A model generated the notes under the pieces. That model saw only the letters and a program-made list of their open reading frames with translations. It was not told where the DNA came from and did not search any database. The position numbers were made by a program, and so were the translations under genes. DNA of 14,804 bases, from positions 1-14,804 of the forward strand of contig JBDRNJ010000025.1 in the NCBI GenBank assembly GCA_043811375.1, in the 5' to 3' direction. This DNA is from a bacterium. Lineage in GTDB: Bacteria > Zixibacteria > MSB-5A5 > GN15 > FEB-12. This document shows positions 2,946 through 14,721 of this stretch, piece by piece (positions within the stretch are counted from its first letter, which is position 1; each line of letters starts with the position of its first letter).

Positions 2946-2972
2946 ATTGCCACCGGTCGGATTAAAACCGGC

Positions 2973-3097
2973 GTGCGCTGGGCCAAGTCAGCGTCGTCTT
3001 GCGGGTGAAAGTCACGTCCAGCCTAAGCTTAGCGAGCAGGCTGGGAGCGAGTCTTACGGGCGACCTTGGTAACGAGGCGTCCGAAGCGTAGACAGCG
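2973..3097 (+). mobile_element. Group II intron 5' fragment (part of domain I only; no RT ORF, no DV/DVI)
   Basis: Starts with the canonical GTGCG. Contains GCGGGTGAAAGTC, helix CCAGCCT/AGGCTGG, a GTAA-tetraloop arm GGGCG-A-CCTTG-GTAA-CGAGG-CGTCC, and GAGTCTT...GAAGCGTAGACAG. These match the motif order I recall for bacterial class E/F-like intron domain I. Confidence 0.75.
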
Positions 3098-3100
3098 GTT

Positions 3101-3246
3101 GCGTTCCTCGCGATGACGGTGTTCGGGTGCCGTAGGCGTGGTTACAATCGGCAATGGCCCCATCGGAAGGTCACCGGGCCAATGTACTTTGCAAATGCCT
3201 CCAACCACGTCATTGAGAAGAACGCTCCGGCGTGCAGTGGCAATCT
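3101..3246. repeat. Inverted pair of degenerate CGTC-tagged REP-like palindromic units
   Basis: The reverse complement of 3101-3118 is CGTCATCGCGAGGAACGC, versus 3208-3225 CGTCATTGAGAAGAACGC (15/18). GTGGCAATCT (3237-3246) is the exact reverse complement of AGATTGCCAC (2944-2953). Resembles the GTCATTGCGAG...GCAATC repeat type. Confidence 0.6.
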
Positions 3247-3318
3247 CATGCCTCCGCTATCAAGTATGGGAAACATCCCATACACCCTAAAAAAGGAACC
3301 GCAGACCCACAATTCATC

Positions 3319-3346
3319 TTGACAAAATGGACTTTTGTGGTATATT
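3319..3346 (+). promoter_or_regulatory. Sigma70 promoter of the trp/aro supraoperon
   Basis: Consensus TTGACA (3319-3324), 16-nt spacer, extended -10 TG-G-TATATT (3338-3346), just upstream of the leader ORF. Confidence 0.8.
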
Positions 3347-3369
3347 TGGCATAATTAAACGTAAAGGTA

Positions 3370-3486
3370 ATGGCAGTAATGACGAAGAAGACAGGACTCT
3401 CATACTATTGGCCCGGCGTCTATTGGTGGTGGTATTATATCACCTGCCGGTCTGGTAGCTGTTGCCCTGTCCTGATCTCACCATAA
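3370..3486 (+). CDS. trpL: Attenuator leader peptide rich in Tyr and Trp: MAVMTKKTGLSYYWPGVYWWWYYITCRSGSCCPVLISP (alternative start ATG 3379)
   Basis: Hand-translated. SD-like AAAGGT at 3363-3368. Codons TAC TAT TGG ... TAT TGG TGG TGG TAT TAT. Stop TAA at 3484-3486, 18 nt before a terminator and upstream of trpE. Confidence 0.88.
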   Translation: MAVMTKKTGLSYYWPGVYWWWYYITCRSGSCCPVLISP

Positions 3487-3504
3487 GGTAATCAGAAAAG
3501 GTTC

Positions 3505-3539
3505 AAGGCCCGCTATCAGAACGATAGCGGGCCTTTTTT
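3505..3539 (+). terminator. Attenuator (intrinsic terminator) upstream of trpE
   Basis: AAGGCCCGCTATC-AGAAC-GATAGCGGGCCTT, a perfect 13-bp stem ending in a 6-U tract (3534-3539). Confidence 0.95.
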
Positions 3540-3558
3540 ATTGCATGAAAGGGTGACT

Positions 3559-5016
3559 ATGACAGACGTTAACATCCACCAGGCGATCGGGCTGGCAGGC
3601 CAACCCGGCCTGAAGGTAATCCAGCGGGAAATGCCCGCCGATCTGGAAACGCCGGTCTCAGCCTTCCTGAAACTGCGCAACCACGGCGCCCGGATTCTGC
3701 TTGAAAGCGTCGAGAGCGGCACCACCCTGGGCCGGTACTCCTTTATCGGTATGAAGCCCGATTCCCAGATAACTATCGACTCCGAAAACCTGATCATTCA
3801 AAACGGCGACAGCCCGACTAAAATCAGCCATCCCTCAGGTGGTACCCCCTTTACCTCCCTGAGACAGATGCTCCGCCTGCTGAAATCGGAGACGCCATCC
3901 GGCCAACCCCACTTGTTAGGCGGTCTGGTGGGCTATATCAGTTACGATTTCATTCATTTCTTTGAAAAAATCCCCCGGACTACCGACAACAGCCTGGGAC
4001 TGCCGCTGGCCGCCTTTTATCTGATCGATACCCTGCTGGTCTTTGACCATGTCCAGCGGCGTCTCAAACTGATGTGCCTGACGGCTGACCAGGCGGCTGC
4101 TAACCGCCGACTGGACGCCATCCTCGATCATCTCCAGTCCCCACTGACTCTGCCGATCTCCGGCACTTCCGGTCGATCCGGCAACAAACTCGTTTCCAAT
4201 TACACCGAACAGGAATTCGTCGACACCGTCATCAGGGTAAAGGATCATATAACAGCCGGGGACGTTTTTCAACTGGTGCTGTCGCAACAGTTACAGGGAA
4301 CAACCGATTCCGATCCCTTTATGATCTACCGTGCTTTGCGGATGCTCAACCCATCACCCTATATGTACTACCTCGATTTCGACGATGTCCGCCTGATCGG
4401 GTCGTCGCCGGAGGCAATGGTGAAACTTCAGGACGGCCTGGCTACTGTTCGTCCTATCGCGGGCACACGTCCCCGGGGCAAAGACGAAGAAGAAGACCAG
4501 CACCTGGCTCAGGAACTGATCAAAGACGAGAAGGAGCGGGCCGAGCATGTCATGCTGGTTGACCTGGGTCGCAACGACCTGGGCCGTTGCTGCCAAATCG
4601 GGTCGGTGCGAGTGACCGAGCTGATGCAAGTCGAAAAGTATTCTCACGTTATGCATATGACTTCCAATGTGGTCGGTCAGCTCAGACCGGAGTTGGATCA
4701 ATTCGATCTTTTCCGGGCGACATTCCCGGCCGGCACCGTTACCGGGGCGCCTAAAATCAGGTCGATGCAACTGATAGCAGAGTATGAACATGCCCAAAGG
4801 GGACCTTATGCCGGCGCCGTCGGTTATTTCAGCCCCAGCGGTGACATGGACTGGTGCATCACCATCAGGACGATTCTTATGCAGGGCCGAAAGTATTATC
4901 TCCAGGGGGGAGCCGGGATTGTAGCGGATTCGGTACCCGAGCGGGAATACCAGGAAACACGCGACAAAATCGCAGCTTTGAAAAAGGCCATCGAAATGGC
5001 CGAAGGGGGAATCTGA
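3559..5016 (+). CDS. trpE: Anthranilate synthase component I
   Basis: Motifs DLETPVSAF, LLESVE, GRYSFIG, NPSPYM, PIAGTRPRG, EHVMLVDLGRND, GTVTGAPK. ATG 3559 is preferred over TTG 3541 because SD GAAAGGGTG precedes it. Confidence 0.97.
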   Translation: MTDVNIHQAIGLAGQPGLKVIQREMPADLETPVSAFLKLRNHGARILLESVESGTTLGRYSFIGMKPDSQITIDSENLIIQNGDSPTKISHPSGGTPFTSLRQMLRLLKSETPSGQPHLLGGLVGYISYDFIHFFEKIPRTTDNSLGLPLAAFYLIDTLLVFDHVQRRLKLMCLTADQAAANRRLDAILDHLQSPLTLPISGTSGRSGNKLVSNYTEQEFVDTVIRVKDHITAGDVFQLVLSQQLQGTTDSDPFMIYRALRMLNPSPYMYYLDFDDVRLIGSSPEAMVKLQDGLATVRPIAGTRPRGKDEEEDQHLAQELIKDEKERAEHVMLVDLGRNDLGRCCQIGSVRVTELMQVEKYSHVMHMTSNVVGQLRPELDQFDLFRATFPAGTVTGAPKIRSMQLIAEYEHAQRGPYAGAVGYFSPSGDMDWCITIRTILMQGRKYYLQGGAGIVADSVPEREYQETRDKIAALKKAIEMAEGGI

Positions 5017-5582
5017 TGGTCCTGATAATTGACAACTACGACTCCTTCACTTACAACCTGGCGCAACAGATCGGCGAGTTGGGTCATGAGTTTAAGGTGA
5101 TCCGTAACGATGAAATAACCCCCGACGATGCTGATGCCATCAAATCGACTCACCTGGTTATCTCACCGGGTCCCGGCAGACCCGAGCAGGCCGGGAATTC
5201 CGTCGATCTGATCCGGCACTTTACCGGTCGGATACCGATCCTGGGCGTCTGTCTCGGACATCAGTGTCTGGCGCACACCTGTCATGGTATCATCACCAAC
5301 GCCGAAACACTGGTACACGGGAAGACCTCGATGATCTACCATACCGGTGAAGGACTATTCCAGGGTATGCCCAACCCGTTTGAGGCCACCCGCTATCATT
5401 CTCTGATTGTCGATGACGCCACATTGCCGAAAGACATCACTGTTACGGCTCACACCTCGGCCGGAGAAATAATGGGCATTCAACTCACCGATAGGTCGGC
5501 GGTCGGTGTCCAGTTTCACCCGGAGTCAGTCCTTACCAGGCATGGCAAGCTGCTGATGATAAACTTTCTGAATATGGGGTGA
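5016..5582 (+). CDS. trpG: Anthranilate synthase component II (glutamine amidotransferase)
   Basis: IDNYDSFTYNL, SPGPG, GVCLGHQ, RYHSL, GVQFHPES. The true start is ATG 5016, overlapping the trpE stop (TGATG). Confidence 0.97.
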   Translation: MVLIIDNYDSFTYNLAQQIGELGHEFKVIRNDEITPDDADAIKSTHLVISPGPGRPEQAGNSVDLIRHFTGRIPILGVCLGHQCLAHTCHGIITNAETLVHGKTSMIYHTGEGLFQGMPNPFEATRYHSLIVDDATLPKDITVTAHTSAGEIMGIQLTDRSAVGVQFHPESVLTRHGKLLMINFLNMG

Positions 5583-5585
5583 CGG

Positions 5586-6611
5586 ATGATCAATCAGGCA
5601 ACCAGTAAGATTCTGGCCGGTGAAAATCTGTCGGCCGACGAAAGCCGCCGAGTTATGCAGCAGATCATGTCCGGCGATGCGACCCCTGTCCAAATGGCGG
5701 CTTACCTGACGGCTTTGCGTCAGAAAGGGGAGACCTCCGAAGAAATACTCGGTGCTGCTCAGGTCATGCGGGATAAAGTCCACCGCGTCCGGCATCACCA
5801 GGACGTCATCTTTGATAACTGCGGTACCGGCGGCGATGGCGCTGGAACCTTCAATATCTCCACCACGGCCTCTTTCGTAATAGCCGCCTGCGGTCTGGCC
5901 GTCGGCAAACACGGCAACCGCTCGGTCTCCAGCCAGTGTGGCAGTGCTGATGTCCTGCAGGCACTGGGGGCCGACATTTCGCTCTCTTCACAGCAGATGG
6001 CCACCTGTATTGACGAGATCGGTATCGGATTCCTTTTTGCGCCTAATCTTCATCCTGCCATGAAACAGGTCGCTCCGGTGCGTCGGGAACTCGGCTTCAG
6101 GACGATTTTCAATATCCTGGGACCACTGACCAATCCGGCCTTTGCCACCCATCAATTGATTGGTGTTTTCGATGGTGACTATACCGAACCTTTGGCAGCC
6201 GCGGCCGGCAAGTTGGGAATCCGCAAAGTGGCCGTGGTCTACAACCTGTGTAATATCGATGAGTTGACCACTGCCGGAACCAATCAACTCTCCTACGCTG
6301 ACAACGGAACGGTTAGGACAGAAACACTGGAGCCGCACCGGTTGGGTTTTGCACCATGTCGACCAGAAGACTTAAGCGGTGGTTCCGCTGAAGAAAACGC
6401 CGGTATTACGATGGCGATTCTAAACGGTGAAAAAGGTCCCGGGCGTGATACGGTTATCTTAAATGCAGCAGTCGCTTTTATGGTGGCAGATAAAGTCGAT
6501 GATATCGCTTCCGGAATTGCTCTGGCCACCGAGAGTATTGACTCCGGCCGGGCTCACCGGAAACTGATTTCTTTCATCAAACTGACCCGGACGTTGGTAA
6601 ATGCTGAATGA
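5586..6611 (+). CDS. trpD: Anthranilate phosphoribosyltransferase
   Basis: CGTGGDG, FNIST, KHGNRSVSS, GSADVL, RTIFNILGPLTNP. Confidence 0.97.
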   Translation: MINQATSKILAGENLSADESRRVMQQIMSGDATPVQMAAYLTALRQKGETSEEILGAAQVMRDKVHRVRHHQDVIFDNCGTGGDGAGTFNISTTASFVIAACGLAVGKHGNRSVSSQCGSADVLQALGADISLSSQQMATCIDEIGIGFLFAPNLHPAMKQVAPVRRELGFRTIFNILGPLTNPAFATHQLIGVFDGDYTEPLAAAAGKLGIRKVAVVYNLCNIDELTTAGTNQLSYADNGTVRTETLEPHRLGFAPCRPEDLSGGSAEENAGITMAILNGEKGPGRDTVILNAAVAFMVADKVDDIASGIALATESIDSGRAHRKLISFIKLTRTLVNAE

Positions 6612-7389
6612 AATCGTAAGCAGCCGCAAAAAACAAGTGGCAGAGATGAACTTCATTGCCCGTATCGACCGGATTATGCCTTTGATCGAGTGTTTACCGC
6701 CGGTCCGCAGCCTGAAGACAAGTTTGACTCGCGACGAGGGAGTATCTCTAATTGCCGAGGTGAAGCGCCGCTCGCCCTCGAAGGGTGTTCTCAATCGGGA
6801 CCTCGAGGCTGCGGCTACCGCTTCCATCTATCAGGCGTCGGGAGCCGCCGGCATTTCCGTGCTGACGGAACCGGAGTATTTCCACGGTAATATTGACGAC
6901 CTGATGGATGCACGTTGGGCAACCGATCTGCCGGTGTTGAGAAAGGACTTCATTGTTGACGCCGGTCAGGTGTACGAGAGCCGGCTGATTGGCGCTGACG
7001 TCATTCTTCTGATTGTCGCTATTCTGAGTCACGATCAGTTGACATCACTGTACTCACTGGCGCATCAACTTGGTCTGGAAGTACTGCTGGAAGTGCACAG
7101 CGAACAGGAACTGACGGCAGCGCTGAAGCTGACGCCGGATTTGATCGGTATCAACAACCGCGATCTGAAAACCTTTGAGATAGACCTCGGCACCACCGAA
7201 AGGTTGGCGTCGATGCTGCCGGACACAACTACCAGTGTCAGTGAAAGCGGAATACACAACCGCGATGATATCCTGCGCTTGCAGGCTGCCGGTGTCGATG
7301 CCGTGTTGGTGGGGGAGGAGTTGGTCTGTAGTGCCGATCCGGGAAGGCGAATAAAGCAGTTGCTGGGAGTGGCGCATGACCAGGATTAA
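6601..7389 (+). CDS. trpC: Indole-3-glycerol phosphate synthase
   Basis: IAEVKRRSPSKG, ISVLTE, PVLRKDF, GINNRDL, SESGI. Confidence 0.97.
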   Translation: MLNEIVSSRKKQVAEMNFIARIDRIMPLIECLPPVRSLKTSLTRDEGVSLIAEVKRRSPSKGVLNRDLEAAATASIYQASGAAGISVLTEPEYFHGNIDDLMDARWATDLPVLRKDFIVDAGQVYESRLIGADVILLIVAILSHDQLTSLYSLAHQLGLEVLLEVHSEQELTAALKLTPDLIGINNRDLKTFEIDLGTTERLASMLPDTTTSVSESGIHNRDDILRLQAAGVDAVLVGEELVCSADPGRRIKQLLGVAHDQD

Positions 7390-7999
7390 GATATGCGGCA
7401 TCACCAATCTGCAGGATGCCCACATGGCTGTCGATTTGGGTGCCGATGCCCTGGGGTTTGTCTTTGCCGACAGTCCACGTAAAGTCAGTCCCGAAACAGC
7501 ACGGGAAATCATTGCCGCCTTACCGCCGTTTGTGGACAAGGTCGGTGTTTTCGTCAACGAAGATCGGGATACCGTTAGGGAAATACATAAGTTCTGTCGA
7601 TTGACCACTTTGCAGTTCCACGGTGATGAAGACCCCGACTACGTGGAATCGTTTTCCATTCCCGTTATCAAGGTTTTCGGAGTTGATGGCGATCGGGTGC
7701 TGGACCAAATCCGTGCCTGCCGTCAGCCGTACTTTCTTCTCGACGCTCACGTTGACGGTCATGCCGGCGGTACCGGCCAAACCTTTGACTGGGAGATCGC
7801 CCGACAGGCAAGCAGCCTGGGGCAGGTTATCCTTTCCGGTGGATTGAATCCGGACAACGTAGTCTCGTCACTGGAGATTGTCCGACCGTACGCGGTGGAT
7901 GTCAGTAGTGGCATTGAAAGCCGACCGGGTGTCAAAGATCCAACAAAGATGAAACAGTTCATTCAAGAGGTGCGGACTTGGGACAACCGGGTAAAATAG
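7376..7999 (+). CDS. trpF: Phosphoribosylanthranilate isomerase
   Basis: [43 protein letters not shown]. Confidence 0.97.
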
Positions 8000-9225
8000 G
8001 CTATTTCGGCGACTACGGCGGCCGCTTTGTGCCGGAGACCTTAATGGCGGCTCTGCTGGAGTTGGAAAAAGAGTATCGACTGGCCAGGCGAGACCGGGCG
8101 TTCAGGACCGAGTTGCGCGACCTGATGCAGACTTATGCCGGTCGTCCCACGCCACTCTATTTCGCACAACGTCTGACGCGCAAATGGAGCGGCGCCCGGG
8201 TGTATCTGAAACGTGAAGACCTGGCTCATACCGGCGCCCACAAAATAAACAATTGCCTCGGTCAGGGACTGTTGGCAACGAAGATGGGTAAGAAACGTCT
8301 GATAGCCGAAACAGGTGCCGGTCAGCACGGTGTCGCCGTGGCTACCGTAGCCTGCCTCTTCGGACAGAAGTGCACTATCTACATGGGTTGCGAGGACATG
8401 CAGCGTCAGGCGCCCAACGTGGATCGCATGAGGTTGCTCAACGCCGAAGTTATTCCCGTTACCGCCGGCAGTCAAACCCTCAAAGACGCTACCAATGAAG
8501 CCATTCGCGACTGGGTAACGAACGTAAAGGGAACACACTACATTATCGGCTCCACTGTCGGCCCGCACCCCTACCCGCTGATGGTGCGTGATTTTCAGTC
8601 CGTCATCGGCCGCGAGGCGCGAAAACAGATACGTAAATTGCAAGGCAGCCTGCCCGACGTTGTTGTGGCCTGTGTCGGCGGGGGCAGCAATGCCCTGGGC
8701 ATGTTCCATGCATTTGTCAAAGACACTCAAGTCAGGTTGATCGGTGTCGAATCGGCCGGAGCAGGTCTGTCCGGTGGCCGTCACGCTGCCACTCTCGGAC
8801 GGGGCCGCCCCGGTGTGCTTCACGGCAGCTTCAGTTACCTGCTTCAGGATAAATCGGGACAGGTACGAACCACCCATTCAGTAGCTGCCGGCCTGGACTA
8901 TCCCGGGGTGGGACCGGAACACAGCTTTCTTAAAGATTCCCGACGGGTCGAGTATGTTTCCGTCACAGACCGCCAGGCACTGGCGGCATTTGCCGAACTG
9001 ACTGAGATCGAGGGTATCATACCGGCCCTGGAATCATCCTTTGCCCTGGCCTATGCCGGGAAGATCGCCACCAAACTGGGGCGGGATGCCGTTATGATTG
9101 TCAATCTGTCCGGCCGTGGCGACAAAGACCTGGCCAATCCCGAAGTGATTCGTCTTATCCGCAACAAGAAAACGAGAACCACCCGCCCAACGGGTAAACG
9201 TCACCGGAGAAAGACTGGCAAATGA
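7978..9225 (+). CDS. trpB: Tryptophan synthase beta chain
   Basis: [28 protein letters not shown] (PLP lysine), [37 protein letters not shown] start preceded by GAGGTG. Confidence 0.98.
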
Positions 9226-10028
9226 AGTCCATAGGTGACACCTTCAGGCATTGCCGCCAGTTTGGACGGAAAGCTCTCATGCCGTTTTTAACGGCCGGCT
9301 ATCCCGACCGCAGGTCATTTGTAAAATTATTTCGGGCATTCAATGAATCAGGTGCCGATTTGATCGAGGTGGGTATCCCTTTCTCCGACCCTATGGCCGA
9401 CGGCAAGACGATACAGTTCTCCTCACAAAAGGCGCTTGTAAATGGTGTGACTGTCGAAAACACGCTGGCCTGCCTGTCGCAGTTGGGAGAGTCTTTTGAT
9501 ACCCCGTTGATTATAATGAGTTACTACAATCCCATATACAGCTATGGCTTCAAGCGCTTCCTGCAACGAGCCCGGCAGGCAGGTGTGCGCGGCTTGATTA
9601 TTCCCGACCTGATTCCAGAGGAAGGAACCGACGTTGAGCGTCTCTGCCGCCGTTACCGTATCGACCTGATCTACCTGCTGGCACCCACGACGGATGCCCG
9701 GCGACGCCGGATGGTTGTGAGACGGTCACAGGGCTTTGTCTACCTGGTGTCAGTCACCGGTGTCACGGGAGCCCGGAAGTCACTCCCCGTCTATCTGAAC
9801 AAATGGATCGGTGACGTAAAAACAGAATGCTGTTTGCCGGTATGCGTCGGCTTTGGAATTGCCGATCTGAAGCAGGCGCTGGCAGTAGCCCGGCACGCCG
9901 ACGGTGTTATCATGGGCAGCGCCATCATTGATATAGTCCGTCGGGCACAGGACCCCCGGCAGGCCGTGACACGGGTTAGAACATTCTTGAAGCAACTTAG
10001 AAAGGGACTCGATTATGACCTGCGTTAG
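9222..10028 (+). CDS. trpA: Tryptophan synthase alpha chain
   Basis: [45 protein letters not shown] overlap with trpB. Confidence 0.97.
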
Positions 10029-10413
10029 AGGCATCAGGGGGGCTATCAGGATCGATGAGAACACCGCCGACTGCATTCTCAGGTCGACTCGTGAGTTGCT
10101 TCTGAGCATGACCGAAGCCAATGATGTCGTCCCGGAGGACATCGCCTCGGTCTTTTTTACCACTACGGCTGACCTGAATGCCGAGTTCCCGGCCTATGCC
10201 ACCCGTGACCTGAACTGGAAAATGGTGCCTCTGTTGTGCGCCAGTGAACTCAGCGTTCCGGAGGGGATGACCAGACTGATAAGAATACTTATGCATGTAA
10301 ATACTGACCGGTCACAGGCGCAGATTAAACACCAGTACCTGGGTGAGACTTGCAGACTGAGACCGGATCTTTGTGAAGGAGGTAATGATGATGATAGTCG
10401 TGATGAAAGCTGA
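10015..10413 (+). CDS. aroH: Chorismate mutase, AroH (Bacillus-type) class
   Basis: [38 protein letters not shown]...LRPDL. Confidence 0.93.
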
Positions 10414-11404
10414 TGCCGGCGTCAAGCAGACCGGTGCAGTAATCACGAAAGTCCAGCAACTCGGATATGAGCCGCATCCGTCCCAGGGCGAAAAGAAAAC
10501 GATTATCGGTATGATCGGCAATGGGATCAAGTTTGATCCGCAAACGTTCCTGGCTATGCCCGGTGTTGAAAACGTGGTGCCCATTCTGCAACCGTTCAAA
10601 CTGGCCAGCCGCGAGTTCAAAAAGTCGTCCACGGTCGTATCGCTCAACGGCACTCGCATCGGCGGCAACAAAGTCGTCGTAATGGCCGGTCCCTGTGCCG
10701 TGGAAAGCCGTGATCAGTTGCTCAAGACAGCCGAGGTGGTGGCCGAAGCCGGTGCCAGTATTCTCCGTGGCGGCGCTTTCAAACCGCGTACTTCTCCATA
10801 TAGTTTCCAGGGGTTGGGCGAGGAAGGCCTCAAGATTCTTCGGGAAGCGGGCGACAAAACCGGCTTAGGCGTGGTGACGGAAGTAATGTCGCCCATGACC
10901 GTCGATTTGGTAGCCGCCTACGCCGACATTCTCCAGGTCGGTGCCCGCAATATGCAGAATTACTCGCTGCTGGAAGCCGTCGGTAAAACGACCAAACCGG
11001 TGCTGCTCAAGCGGGGACTCATGTCGACTGTCGAGGAACTGCTGATGGCGGCTGAGTACATACTATCCAACGGCAATCCCAATGTCATCCTGTGTGAACG
11101 CGGCATCCGCAGCTTCGAGAAGTACACTCGCAACACGCTGGACATCGCCGCCGTGCCGGTGATCAAATCATTGAGCCACCTGCCGATAATCGTCGATCCC
11201 AGCCATGCTACCGGGCACCGATACCTGGTGGCGCCGGTGTCGCTCAGTGCCGTTGCTGCCGGAGCCGACGGGTTGATTATCGAGGTCCACCCCAAACCCG
11301 AAGAAGCTCTCTCTGACGGCGCGCAGAGTTTGCACCCGGAAGAATTCGCCGAATTGATGAATAATCTGGGCCGGGTCGCGGTGGCTGTCGGCCGGGAAAT
11401 ATGA
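10391..11404 (+). CDS. aroF: DAHP synthase, type I-beta with an N-terminal ACT/ferredoxin-like regulatory domain
   Basis: MIVVMK N-terminus, [61 protein letters not shown] at 10378-10382. The start could be ATG 10388 or 10391. Confidence 0.95.
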
Positions 11405-12267
11405 AGCCGCTGTCACAGATGAAAGCCCTGATCGTCGGTCTCGGCCAGATCGGCGGCTCGCTCGGTCTTGATCTGGTGGAGTATGGCATCGTGTCTGAAG
11501 TCATCGGTTACGACCGCGACCCGACTGTCGTGAGTGCCGCCGGAAAAAGGCAGGCTATCCACTCCGTGGCTCGTTCTCTCAAAGACGGTATCAGCCGGGC
11601 CGACCTGATCATCCTGGCCACACCGATTCGCCGGACCATTAAAATGATCCCCTCCGTCTGTCGCCTGGCCGGTCCCGAGCGAGCCATACTGGATGTCGCC
11701 GGCACCAAACGACAGATATTGAAAGCCGTGAACAATGCTGCTAAGGGAACCAACTACATCAGTGGACACCCGTTGGCGGGCAACGAACGCTGTGGCATTG
11801 AAGCGGCCGACAACAACAAGTTCCGTGATCGGCCCTTTGTCCTGGTGCCGATGGTTGTCAGATACCGCACTTGGTTGTCGAATGTGAAACAACTCGTCGG
11901 TTGTCTTGGCGCCGTGCCGATGATAATGTCGGCTGATGAGCATGATCGGCTGATTGCTCTTACCAGCAATATGCCTTACCTGTTGTCAATAGTCTTAATG
12001 GATTTGGCGCTGGAGTCCGCCCGTCACAATCGGCGGTTATGGCGTCTGACCGGCGGCAGTTTCACCGGTGCTACCAGGGTGGCGGCATCTTCGGTCGATC
12101 TTTCTCTGGACATGTTCCTGACCAACTCCGATGAGATCACCGGCGTCATTGATCGCACTATGGACAAACTGCTGGCGATGAAGAAACTGTTGCAGGCAGG
12201 GGACGAGCGACGTCTAAGGGCACTGATCCGACGAACGCATCGCAAGTCCCGCACGCTGCACGGTTAG
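11401..12267 (+). CDS. tyrA: Prephenate/arogenate dehydrogenase (TyrA family), no C-terminal ACT domain evident
   Basis: Rossmann motif [45 protein letters not shown] overlap with the DAHP synthase gene. Confidence 0.92.
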
Positions 12268-12316: not shown

Positions 12317-14458
12317 CTAACGCAACAAACTCTGTTGCAACGGTGAACCGGTCACCTCCCACTGTCCTTTACCGACATTCCGGGCATCCTCAAATACCAG
12401 GAATGAATACTTACCGTAGTGGGGGACAAGCTGACCGATACGGGGGAGTGACAGAAGATCATCGGATAAAATCACCAGATAACGCTCGAACCCGTCCCAA
12501 TCGGCACCTGTGAGCACAAACGTGTGACCCTCCTTTTTGTACGTCGTTCCGTTTATTACCAAATGCAAACCCTCGTGCGTTACCCGTTGTCTCAGATAGG
12601 GCGGCAGCTCAGTCGGGTTGATTAGTATCGGCAGGTAGTCGCGGTCGTTATCCTGCAACACTTCAGGCGGCTCAACGATAACCGAATCTTCCGTCAGGTT
12701 AATGCCGAATGTTGCCGCCAGCGAACTGTCTTCACTGTCGCCGGCAGACAGCACGAATCGCAGATTTGGCCGGTTCAGGATAACGGACAGGATCGGCTCG
12801 ATCTCATCCGGGTAGAGCCTGCGGAACAGATGATAATCAGGATCAACTGTCAGCGTGGTGATCCCGGCTGGGACAGTCATGGAGAAAAGAGAGTCGACGG
12901 TGTCGAGCAGCACGATTGTGTCCAGGATGAATTCCTCGCCTGAAAATCGTAGCGGCACCAGCAACCGGTATGGCTGATTGCTTTGTTGACTCAACCGGAA
13001 CTGCACTGCCAGTGAATCCGTCTCCGATATGGATGCTACCGTCACGATATCGAGCGCCAACATTGGCGCGCCCGTGCGGTCGATCCACTGTGGGATCACG
13101 TGGTCGAGAGTTCTGCCGGATGTTTGTTCAAAGGCTTCGATCCATTCTTCCCACGAGATTTGCTGTCCACGTTGCTCACGGTATATCTGCTGCCAGCTCT
13201 CGAAGAAAGCCGCCGTGCCGATTTCCCGTTCGATCATGTGGTAGATCATCATCCCCTTGTTGTACCCAATTGTGCGCGTCTCGGGACTGGTGCGTGACCG
13301 AAATCGGCGAACGGGGAAGTCGTTCTCCTCATTGACCAGGCTGACATATTGCTTGAGGATATCCTTGCGGTAATCCCGCGCGGCGGCGGCCGACTGCTGC
13401 AGCTTGTAGCGGTAGTCAGCGCCGTAGACCGTCGCTGCTTCACACCAGTTGCCGCGATCGTAATCAACATACACGGAGTTGCCCCACCAGTTATGCAGCA
13501 CCTCATGCCCCAGCGATGTACCGATTATAAACGGCAGTCGCAATACCCGTTGTCCCAGCAGTGTCCAGGCCGGCATGCCATAGCCGGTGGGGAAGAAGTT
13601 TTCCGCCACCGTGAAACGGCTGTACGGATACGGTCCGATAAGGTCAGAATACATGCGGATGTAGTCGGCGGTAGCGGCCAGGTAGTCTTGGCAAAGCCCG
13701 GTGTCGGCCTCGAAGAAATAGGTGAACACCTCGATACCGTCCACCTGGGTCGACCGCACCACATAAGGAGCCGCCATCATCTGGCAACCATCGGACTGGA
13801 AGGGATTCTCCCAGGTCTGAACCTTGCGATTACCCATGACATCGGATGTTACCAGGTTACCATCGCTGACCGATTCCCAGCTATCAGGAATGTTCACTGT
13901 CAGGCGGAAATGCATCAGCCCATCGTCGCCCTGCGGATAGAACAGCGCCGCCGAACTGAGGTAAGCACCTACTTCAAGTATCGTACCACTTATTTCACTA
14001 CCTACCCGTTCACGAGAAAAACGAGTACCGGACATATCTTTGTGGAATACGGCTTGGAAACTGAGGTCGAATGAATGGCGGCCGCCCTGTGGTATCCGGA
14101 AGAAAACCAGCAGCGTCTCTTCGGGAGGGACAATCTGACCGATATGAACGCGCAAGTCCACCGGCAGTTCCGCAGTGTCTCCCGGGCGAACGAGGTAGTA
14201 GTCCGCTGGTGTTTTGGCGACAGTGAATGATACGATCTGTGCCGTTGGATTCAGATAGAAATGATTCCAGCTTGTGTCTGTCTGGAAAGTACCCGTATCT
14301 CTTATTGTTGCCGTATGGGTCGGTACATCCATACTCAGAGCGATACTGTGGCTGTCAAAAACAACCGGTGATCCGGAAACAGTCGCGGCCGATACCGTGA
14401 TTACAATAGCCGCAGTGATCGTTATGGCCGCAATTGTGCTATAAGTGTTATTCAACAT
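12317..14458 (-). CDS. Secreted M1-family zinc aminopeptidase
   Basis: HEVLHNWWGN...WCEA (HEXXH-x18-E), substrate loop GYGMP, catalytic-Tyr region GYNKG. Start at 14458 (MLNNTYSTIAAITITAAIVITVSAA, signal-peptide-like) has SD GAGGT 5 nt upstream. The ORF track start is 14524. Confidence 0.88.
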   Translation of the reverse strand: MLNNTYSTIAAITITAAIVITVSAATVSGSPVVFDSHSIALSMDVPTHTATIRDTGTFQTDTSWNHFYLNPTAQIVSFTVAKTPADYYLVRPGDTAELPVDLRVHIGQIVPPEETLLVFFRIPQGGRHSFDLSFQAVFHKDMSGTRFSRERVGSEISGTILEVGAYLSSAALFYPQGDDGLMHFRLTVNIPDSWESVSDGNLVTSDVMGNRKVQTWENPFQSDGCQMMAAPYVVRSTQVDGIEVFTYFFEADTGLCQDYLAATADYIRMYSDLIGPYPYSRFTVAENFFPTGYGMPAWTLLGQRVLRLPFIIGTSLGHEVLHNWWGNSVYVDYDRGNWCEAATVYGADYRYKLQQSAAAARDYRKDILKQYVSLVNEENDFPVRRFRSRTSPETRTIGYNKGMMIYHMIEREIGTAAFFESWQQIYREQRGQQISWEEWIEAFEQTSGRTLDHVIPQWIDRTGAPMLALDIVTVASISETDSLAVQFRLSQQSNQPYRLLVPLRFSGEEFILDTIVLLDTVDSLFSMTVPAGITTLTVDPDYHLFRRLYPDEIEPILSVILNRPNLRFVLSAGDSEDSSLAATFGINLTEDSVIVEPPEVLQDNDRDYLPILINPTELPPYLRQRVTHEGLHLVINGTTYKKEGHTFVLTGADWDGFERYLVILSDDLLSLPRIGQLVPHYGKYSFLVFEDARNVGKGQWEVTGSPLQQSLLR

Positions 14459-14721
14459 TGTAGACCTCATGTGTGGTTGTTTGCCGTTTATGCCATCCGT
14501 GGCCTGGATCTCCCAAGAATTCACTGATGTTTAATACCATCACAGTTTAGCTGCGTTTGTCTCGATATTCCTCGGTATCTTCATCAGCATAGTATGATTC
14601 TTTGTGACAATGTCCTAATCTATCAAACGGCTCCCTGAATGCAATCGAGATTATGGCGTTGTAAAAGCGGAGGAGCGGCAAGTCGATCGCAAACAGCATT
14701 AACGGGGGGGATCACAGTCAC

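Follow-up and report, generated by a model that had tools for sequence, protein, structure and literature searches.

Organization of the locus

The window, by which we mean the whole stretch of DNA analysed here, is a complete contig of 14.8 kb, and the genome to which it belongs comprises 3.56 Mb and is 95% complete. It carries an operon of ten genes, identified by profile matches as trpEGDCFBA-aroH-aroF-tyrA:

3559–10028, forward strand: trpE, trpG, trpD, trpC, trpF, trpB and trpA, abutting or overlapping, with a trpG-trpD gap of 3 nt
10015–10413, forward strand: aroH, a monofunctional AroH-type chorismate mutase (TIGR01796, above cut-off)
10388–11404, forward strand: aroF, a DAHP synthase with an N-terminal ferredoxin-like domain (profile match)
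11401–12267, forward strand: tyrA, a prephenate/cyclohexadienyl dehydrogenase (Pfam PDH_N and PDH_C), the last gene of the operon

The original prediction, made before any database was searched, had described this operon as the full Trp branch joined to DAHP synthase, chorismate mutase and TyrA and lacking prephenate dehydratase, and both parts of that description stand: the genes are as listed, and a search of the operon and of the whole 95% complete genome for prephenate dehydratase (PF00800) gave no match. No phenylalanine hydroxylase was found in the same genome either. TyrA itself scores above the Pfam PDH_N and PDH_C cut-offs and below the NCBIfam equivalog cut-offs. The gene that follows it lies on the opposite strand (12317–14524) and encodes a 735-aa protein with a weak, below-cut-off match to M1 peptidases; it is convergent on tyrA, the two stop codons being 49 nt apart with no terminator match between them.

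Elsewhere in the genome there is a second DAHP synthase operon, aroF-aroA-aroE-aroK-aroB (G000:C87:34095–39450, reverse strand), placed after an ArgRS-like gene (judged by eye) and devoid of a leader, while aroC is solitary (C52:18015–19184, reverse strand). In many relatives aroA, aroE, aroC, aroK and aroB continue the operon that stands behind the putative attenuator described below.

On the upstream side, what precedes the trp promoter is the tail of an rRNA operon followed by a group II intron remnant. Two 5S rRNA genes (1143–1259 and 2719–2835) lie 1.5 kb apart, the DNA after each of them begins with a similar 65-nt stretch (89% alike), and the interval between them holds two ORFs, one with a weak 8xMP match (1319–1879) and one with no family (2018–2674). 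The remnant is a fragment of group II intron domain 1 (RF02005, 3008–3131, about 2970–3250 in all) which ends shortly before the trp promoter; no reverse-transcriptase ORF follows it and blastn finds no other copy in the assembly.

A leader ORF rich in Trp and Tyr codons precedes trpE

The region between the promoter and trpE contains the following elements, all on the forward strand:

3319–3346, forward strand: sigma-70-type promoter TTGACA-16-TATATT with an extended -10, 11 of 12 consensus positions, the best of 16 matches in the window
3363–3368, forward strand: Shine-Dalgarno-like AAAGGT, 1 nt before ATG 3370 and 10 nt before ATG 3379
3370–3486, forward strand: leader ORF, 38 codons from ATG 3370 or 35 from ATG 3379
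3403–3438, forward strand: putative control codons YYWPGVYWWWYY, leader codons 12–23, with 5 Tyr (1 TAC, 4 TAT) and 4 Trp
3405–3458, forward strand: predicted 1:2 hairpin over the control codons (3405–3411/3452–3458, 3413–3418/3445–3450, 3425–3431/3438–3444)
3451–3459, forward strand: segment 2, the predicted antiterminator strand, pairing with 3512–3520 (9 bp, one G-U) and forming the 3' strand of the 1:2 hairpin
3505–3539, forward strand: intrinsic terminator, hairpin 3505–3535 with a 13-bp stem (8 GC) and a 5-nt loop, U6 at 3534–3539; its 5' arm is segment 3

The placement of the leader between a consensus promoter and a terminator was thus correctly recognized at the outset, and in all five relatives checked the leader likewise has a TTGAC..TA...T pattern ahead of it. 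As the spacing of AAAGGT fits ATG 3379 better, the 35-codon form is the likelier start. The ORF contains no Phe codon, and its nine Trp and Tyr codons fall within a single stretch of 12. When all 69,859 short ORFs of the genome (8–70 aa, six frames) were scanned, the leader was alone in reaching nine such codons per 12-codon window, the runners-up having seven (2 ORFs) and six (11 ORFs). The claimed size and composition of the ORF are borne out, and the cluster is not a matter of chance. A motif scan of the same genome revealed no second leader of this family, and the leader peptide has no Pfam or NCBIfam match.

This arrangement is what one would look for in a transcription attenuator: a cluster of end-product codons in a short upstream ORF, an intrinsic terminator between the leader and the first gene, and a candidate antiterminator (3451–3459/3512–3520) whose formation would exclude the terminator. 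The predicted fold of the leader region, a long hairpin followed by the terminator, is more stable than that of any of 200 shuffled sequences (z = -3.4). At gathering score no Rfam family covers the leader; the Trp_leader family (RF00513) gives 23.7 bits (E = 0.011), below its gathering threshold of 41, and the leader is not a member of it. One metatranscriptome run (share 0.06) yielded, over 3250–5000, only short pieces in trpE and zero over the leader, which has no bearing either way.

The leader layout is conserved among relatives

A TrpE orthologue at E <= 1e-130 is present in 56 of the 285 genomes of the phylum, our own included. These provided 57 trpE loci (all 56 genomes plus locus L063), with seven further top loci left out as probable duplicates; after dropping six loci with less than 200 nt of upstream DNA, 51 were usable. 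In 50 of these 51 loci, which have 500 nt or more of upstream DNA, trpE is preceded by a Trp-run ORF together with a terminator belonging to a single sequence family, the sole case with neither being G066. The relatives sharing this layout are probably Zixibacteria. Two units were corrected by hand, namely the terminator arm of G151, where the U-run is interrupted, and the frame in which the proximal leader of G160 is read. Of the 50 operons, 36 extend through aroH-aroF-tyrA (three of them assigned through a second contig), nine end at aroF and five are cut by contig ends. Most of the 36 run on into aroA, aroE, aroC, aroK and aroB.

We also asked what precedes tyrA where it stands apart from the trp genes. 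PF02153 matches occur in 126 of the 285 genomes, and 40 tyrA loci were analysed: 16 from genomes whose trp locus lacked tyrA or was cut before it, and 24 other high-scoring ones. Stand-alone aroH-(aroF)-tyrA operons with upstream sequence were present at 19 of the 40, and in 18 of these the same terminator family, together with a leader carrying a run of Tyr codons, lies upstream of aroH (L196, L197, L198, L212, L213, L215–L217, L220–L222, L224, L226–L230, L235). An example is the run RYYRYYYYY of G035. The stand-alone tyrA operon of G026 has no family leader, and the Tyr leader of G081 appears decayed, with Cys in place of Tyr.

Beyond this group, a leader of the YYWWWY type within 500 nt of trpE was found at none of 72 loci from other phyla (L067–L138) and none of 22 loci with the more distant trpE type of the same phylum (L009–L030), zeros that are no evidence of absence, since mid-operon or short loci are frequent among them; Trp-pair ORFs do occur at a few of them (L076, L077, L098, L134). 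Inspection by eye upstream of 10 of the 65 prephenate dehydratase matches gave no homologous leader at pheA.

The antiterminator pairing favors a leader's own terminator arm

Pairing between segments 2 and 3 was assessed with a set of 39 leaders that represents each genus and class once, by binding the stretch 28–72 nt upstream against terminator arms. The mean binding of a leader's own arm was -17.6 kcal/mol, compared with -12.8 kcal/mol for the arms of the other leaders; in 38 of the 39, z was below -2 against dinucleotide shuffles, and in 38 of the 39 the own arm also ranked above the median of swapped arms. The cognate total was reached in none of 10,000 permutations, a figure that relatedness among the leaders inflates somewhat. 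Segments 2 and 3 co-vary, then, and on these sequence comparisons the antiterminator is real.

The geometry of the leaders is similarly constrained: in 32 of 72 units the last Trp or Tyr codon begins exactly 15 nt upstream of the antiterminator core, and in 56 of 73 the distance from the end of the leader stop to the terminator arm is 22–30 nt. In five genomes the 500 nt upstream of trpE contain two complete leader-terminator units arranged in tandem, with a single promoter-like match ahead of them (loci L031, L032, L143, L144 and L149 of G029, G032, G165, G166 and G160, respectively); in G029 and G032 the stop codon of the first leader overlaps its own antiterminator strand.

Most leaders share a D/G-S/G-G motif after the aromatic run, and such a shared peptide motif could be taken as a sign that the peptide itself matters, either by arresting the ribosome in response to a free amino acid sensed in the tunnel, for which TnaC is the model, or by acting in trans. 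The motif is, in fact, encoded by the antiterminator RNA strand, and in 15 of 72 units that strand is read in another frame, which argues against a function of the peptide. The N-terminal parts of the leaders have no visible common motif, the peptide has no Pfam or NCBIfam match, and arrest by a plentiful amino acid would, judging from the folding geometry, throw the switch the wrong way for a biosynthetic operon. We regard a nascent-peptide or peptide-product mechanism as highly improbable.

Control codons follow the content of the operon

The original prediction proposed that, if the leader senses both amino acids, Tyr codons should co-occur with tyrA and aroH in the operons of related genomes. 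For this comparison, codons were counted over the 18 positions before the antiterminator strand, which was anchored in a 38–72 nt window; the anchor is blind to amino-acid identity, and the total aromatic count decided the frame. In trp+tyr operons, at least two Trp codons occur in 36 of 36 leaders and at least three Tyr codons in 31 of 36, so the Tyr codons are conserved in orthologous leaders. Trp-only operons likewise have at least two Trp codons in 9 of 9, with at least three Tyr codons in just 1 of 9 and at least two in 3 of 9. Stand-alone tyrA operons show the reverse, with at least two Trp codons in 0 of 18 and at least three Tyr codons in 17 of 18. Genus means for trp+tyr, trp-only and tyrA-only operons are 3.5, 0.9 and 5.3 for Tyr and 2.7, 3.2 and 0.2 for Trp. 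Two genomes, G035 and G108, hold both split operons, and there the trp leader has no Tyr codon, while the tyrA leader has 8 and 5, respectively, and no Trp. The proposed comparison thus came out as expected, Tyr codons being kept where aroH and tyrA are in the operon and mostly gone from trp-only operons.

A more conservative reading is that the attenuator responds to Trp only, with the Tyr codons being either structural, since TAT and TAC can pair with the GRUAG strand, or inherited relics, and slowing the ribosome too little to operate the switch. There are points in its favor: one Tyr codon in our leader, and a mean of 0.6 per trp+tyr leader, is predicted to be paired with segment 2; three trp-only leaders keep two or three Tyr codons; and the aroR leader of Corynebacterium glutamicum ignores Tyr, according to the accessible part of the report (PMC11802643). 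On the other hand, four of the five Tyr codons here are unpaired with segment 2, as are 2.9 per leader on average in trp+tyr operons. TAT/TAC triplets in these leaders are frame-specific (3.5 in frame versus 0.1 and 0.8 out of frame) and both Tyr codons are used (97 TAT, 26 TAC), and base pairing alone is thus no explanation for them. Moreover, Tyr codons stand both before and after the Trp run, within the stretch where a stalled ribosome would free the antiterminator, and the same scaffold stands before 18 tyrA operons with Tyr as nearly the sole aromatic codon. A Trp-only attenuator therefore seems unlikely to us, although it deserves more weight than a mechanism based on the peptide.

How often codons and operon content changed together was counted on two trees, neither of which has an outgroup root, so that fission versus fusion of the operons is undecided. 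The TrpE-G-D tree (INDEPENDENCE) has 39 rows, 11 close relatives having been set aside, and contains three changes of operon class; here the presence of at least three Tyr codons changed as predicted in 2.3 independent pairs on average and in the opposite direction in 0.0–0.1 (p = 0.5); with just three pairs, loss of Tyr codons upon loss of tyrA cannot reach significance. The AroH-AroF-TyrA tree, which has 43 rows with 11 others set aside, contains six such changes, and the state of at least two Trp codons was lost along with the trp genes in 6 of 6 independent pairs (sign test, p = 0.031). Rank tests at genus level (p = 0.0003) overstate the association because kin are not independent. If a multivalent leader is one in which each codon type is selected as a control codon, the Trp side is covered by the 6 of 6 pairs, while on the Tyr side the codons are in frame, class-specific and matched by Tyr-only homologues, with only three independent losses.

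Several leaders depart from the rule. G152 and G153 keep RYWWWY although no tyrA match is present in the genome, G157 keeps two Tyr codons, and so does the trp leader of G109 though tyrA stands apart there; G201 has tyrA in the operon, yet zero Tyr codons; and one Trp codon is kept in 5 of the 18 Tyr leaders. As aroF, which encodes the common first step, is still present in trp-only operons, some value may be left in the Tyr codons of their leaders. A phenylalanine-hydroxylase-like gene occurs in four of the six trp-only genomes that lack tyrA (PF00351-domain open frames of 620–645 aa at G002:C33, G091:C27, G151:C146 and G153:C3), and these proteins are a possible alternative route to tyrosine.

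There is also a hint that Phe codons track prephenate dehydratase, with which the lack of both in our own case agrees. Genus means are 1.7 Phe codons with the enzyme in the genome and 0.4 without it; among seven independent pairs, 3.7 go in the same direction, 0.1 in the opposite one and 3.2 are equal, which is not significant (p about 0.125). The Tyr-run leaders of G128 and G136, where prephenate dehydratase is present, add five and three Phe codons. For the Phe codons of G029 and G032, a lipoprotein encoded after tyrA was considered as the reason and dropped, as the protein proved to be a DUF6599 member.

A proposed mechanism of attenuation

Folding of the leader was modelled at equilibrium with a ribosome footprint, of assumed size, masking the RNA over 20 nt behind the A site and 12 nt ahead of it. 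With RNA extending to 3522, the modelled probability of the antiterminator is 1.0 with the A site at codons 10–24, falls to 0.6 at codon 25 and is 0 for codons 26–37. As the last Tyr is codon 23, all nine aromatic codons are inside the permissive zone. In the same model and at this RNA length, the antiterminator is also favoured when the ribosome is absent or at the stop codon. For a ribosome at the stop codon, the 1:2 hairpin reaches a probability of 0.87 only if the RNA extends no further than 3500; in the full-length RNA the terminator wins whatever the ribosome position. The equilibrium model alone thus gives no switch, and it follows from this modelling that timing would have to decide and that the leader switch would be kinetic.

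That the model always ends in the terminator might suggest a different explanation, in which the leader ORF is incidental and the terminator is either constitutive or governed by a bound protein or tRNA, as with TRAP or the T-box. The 95% complete genome yielded neither TRAP (PF02081; 0 matches, with a control that does find the B. subtilis protein) nor TrpR, and there is no T-box match in Rfam, either at gathering score in the window or up to E = 10 in 3250–3600. Control codons that are in frame and vary with operon content, in an ORF whose geometry is kept throughout the family, would be hard to account for if the ORF were incidental, and we give this explanation very little credence.

The reading we prefer, at a probability of about 0.8, is that of a classical ribosome-mediated transcription attenuator with dual input from Trp-tRNA and Tyr-tRNA. 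This had been the central claim of the original prediction, and it gains support from the match between codons and operon content, from the Tyr-only homologues and, in the folding model, from an antiterminator left free at the nine Trp and Tyr codons. We infer translation of the leader, ribosome stalling, its timing and the response to each amino acid as follows. RNA polymerase would start near 3353, and a ribosome would translate the leader. Upon shortage of charged Trp-tRNA or Tyr-tRNA, it would stall within codons 12–23 and open the 1:2 hairpin, leaving 3451–3459 free to pair with 3512–3520 as the antiterminator; the terminator would then be too late to form, and the ten genes from trpE to tyrA would be transcribed. 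When both tRNAs are charged, the ribosome would pass over segment 2, which would stay covered or refold into the 1:2 hairpin, and transcription would end at the U-run 3534–3539. The two inputs may have equal weight, in which case the leader would act as a true OR gate.

Comparison with known attenuators

With E. coli trpL our leader shares a short ORF with cognate codons, the 1:2, 2:3 and 3:4 hairpins, an intrinsic terminator and a biosynthetic operon downstream; unlike trpL, it combines Trp and Tyr codons, its operon adds aroH, aroF and tyrA, and its family includes homologous Tyr-only and tandem forms. Leaders with several kinds of control codons are known from thrL (Thr and Ile) and ilvL (Ile, Leu and Val). 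The present leader resembles them in matching several end products, but here the pathway is aromatic, the codons are Trp and Tyr, and the codon set can be traced as operons split. The mechanism as such is textbook; what appears to be new, as far as the open literature goes, is the probable dual Trp/Tyr input, in a family whose codons follow operon content.

Besides trp, leader-peptide attenuators are known for his, leu, thr, ilv and pheA (accessible part of PMC1183508). The closest precedent among tested aromatic leaders is the C. glutamicum aroR-aroF system, in which Tyr and another aromatic codon likewise stand ahead of a DAHP synthase gene and attenuation was reportedly demonstrated experimentally (Neshat et al. 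2014); according to the accessible portions of PMC11802643 and PMC11525245, its Phe-Tyr-Phe leader responds to Phe and not to Tyr. In contrast to aroR, which as described there has no Trp, our leader has five Tyr codons and those of its relatives have up to eight. Attenuation ahead of aromatic-pathway genes has been predicted, as here, for uORFC-13-1 before aroF in Acholeplasma, a proposed Phe sensor (PMC8632094), and for tyrA operons, where the accessible text names putative attenuators and no leader peptide (PMC1173090). Like five of the relatives (the leader of the window is single), the Salmonella mgtCBR operon carries a pair of short ORFs with attenuators in a single leader; there mgtM and mgtP sense ATP and proline (PMC3641672, accessible part). 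The tandem units of the relatives differ in that the same aromatic-codon module is present twice. The available parts of PMC3082878 and PMC4833913 have nothing on Tyr leaders. Within the open literature we found no leader shown to respond to Tyr; aroR, the only leader with a Tyr codon for which we found a test, is Tyr-unresponsive in the accessible reports.

The suspicion that a Trp/Tyr bivalent leader had not been described also proved justified as far as the open literature goes, as no Trp+Tyr leader was found in it. Subscription comparative attenuator surveys, reportedly including those of Vitreschak (2004) and Lopatovskaya (2010), may predict Tyr or Trp/Tyr leaders.

Significance for the leader family

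The broader picture, which we find rather probable, though less so than the dual attenuator itself, is that of a single scaffold used throughout the phylum, in which control codons are rewritten when the supraoperon splits or joins (Trp+Tyr, Trp or Tyr, with Phe where prephenate dehydratase is present), sometimes in tandem, and which includes a true response to Tyr-tRNA. If this picture is true, the family would include a Tyr-tRNA-responsive ribosome-mediated attenuator, of which we found no demonstration in the open literature, and would provide a natural series for the evolution of attenuator specificity and gain. On a shared RNA scaffold, the family offers matched leaders of the Trp-only, Tyr-only, dual, triple and tandem kinds, and short synthetic leaders, introduced into a laboratory strain, make it testable how multivalent attenuators weigh their inputs and what becomes of regulation after operon fission. 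Another possible use of the scaffold is as a tunable biosensor for Tyr and Trp.
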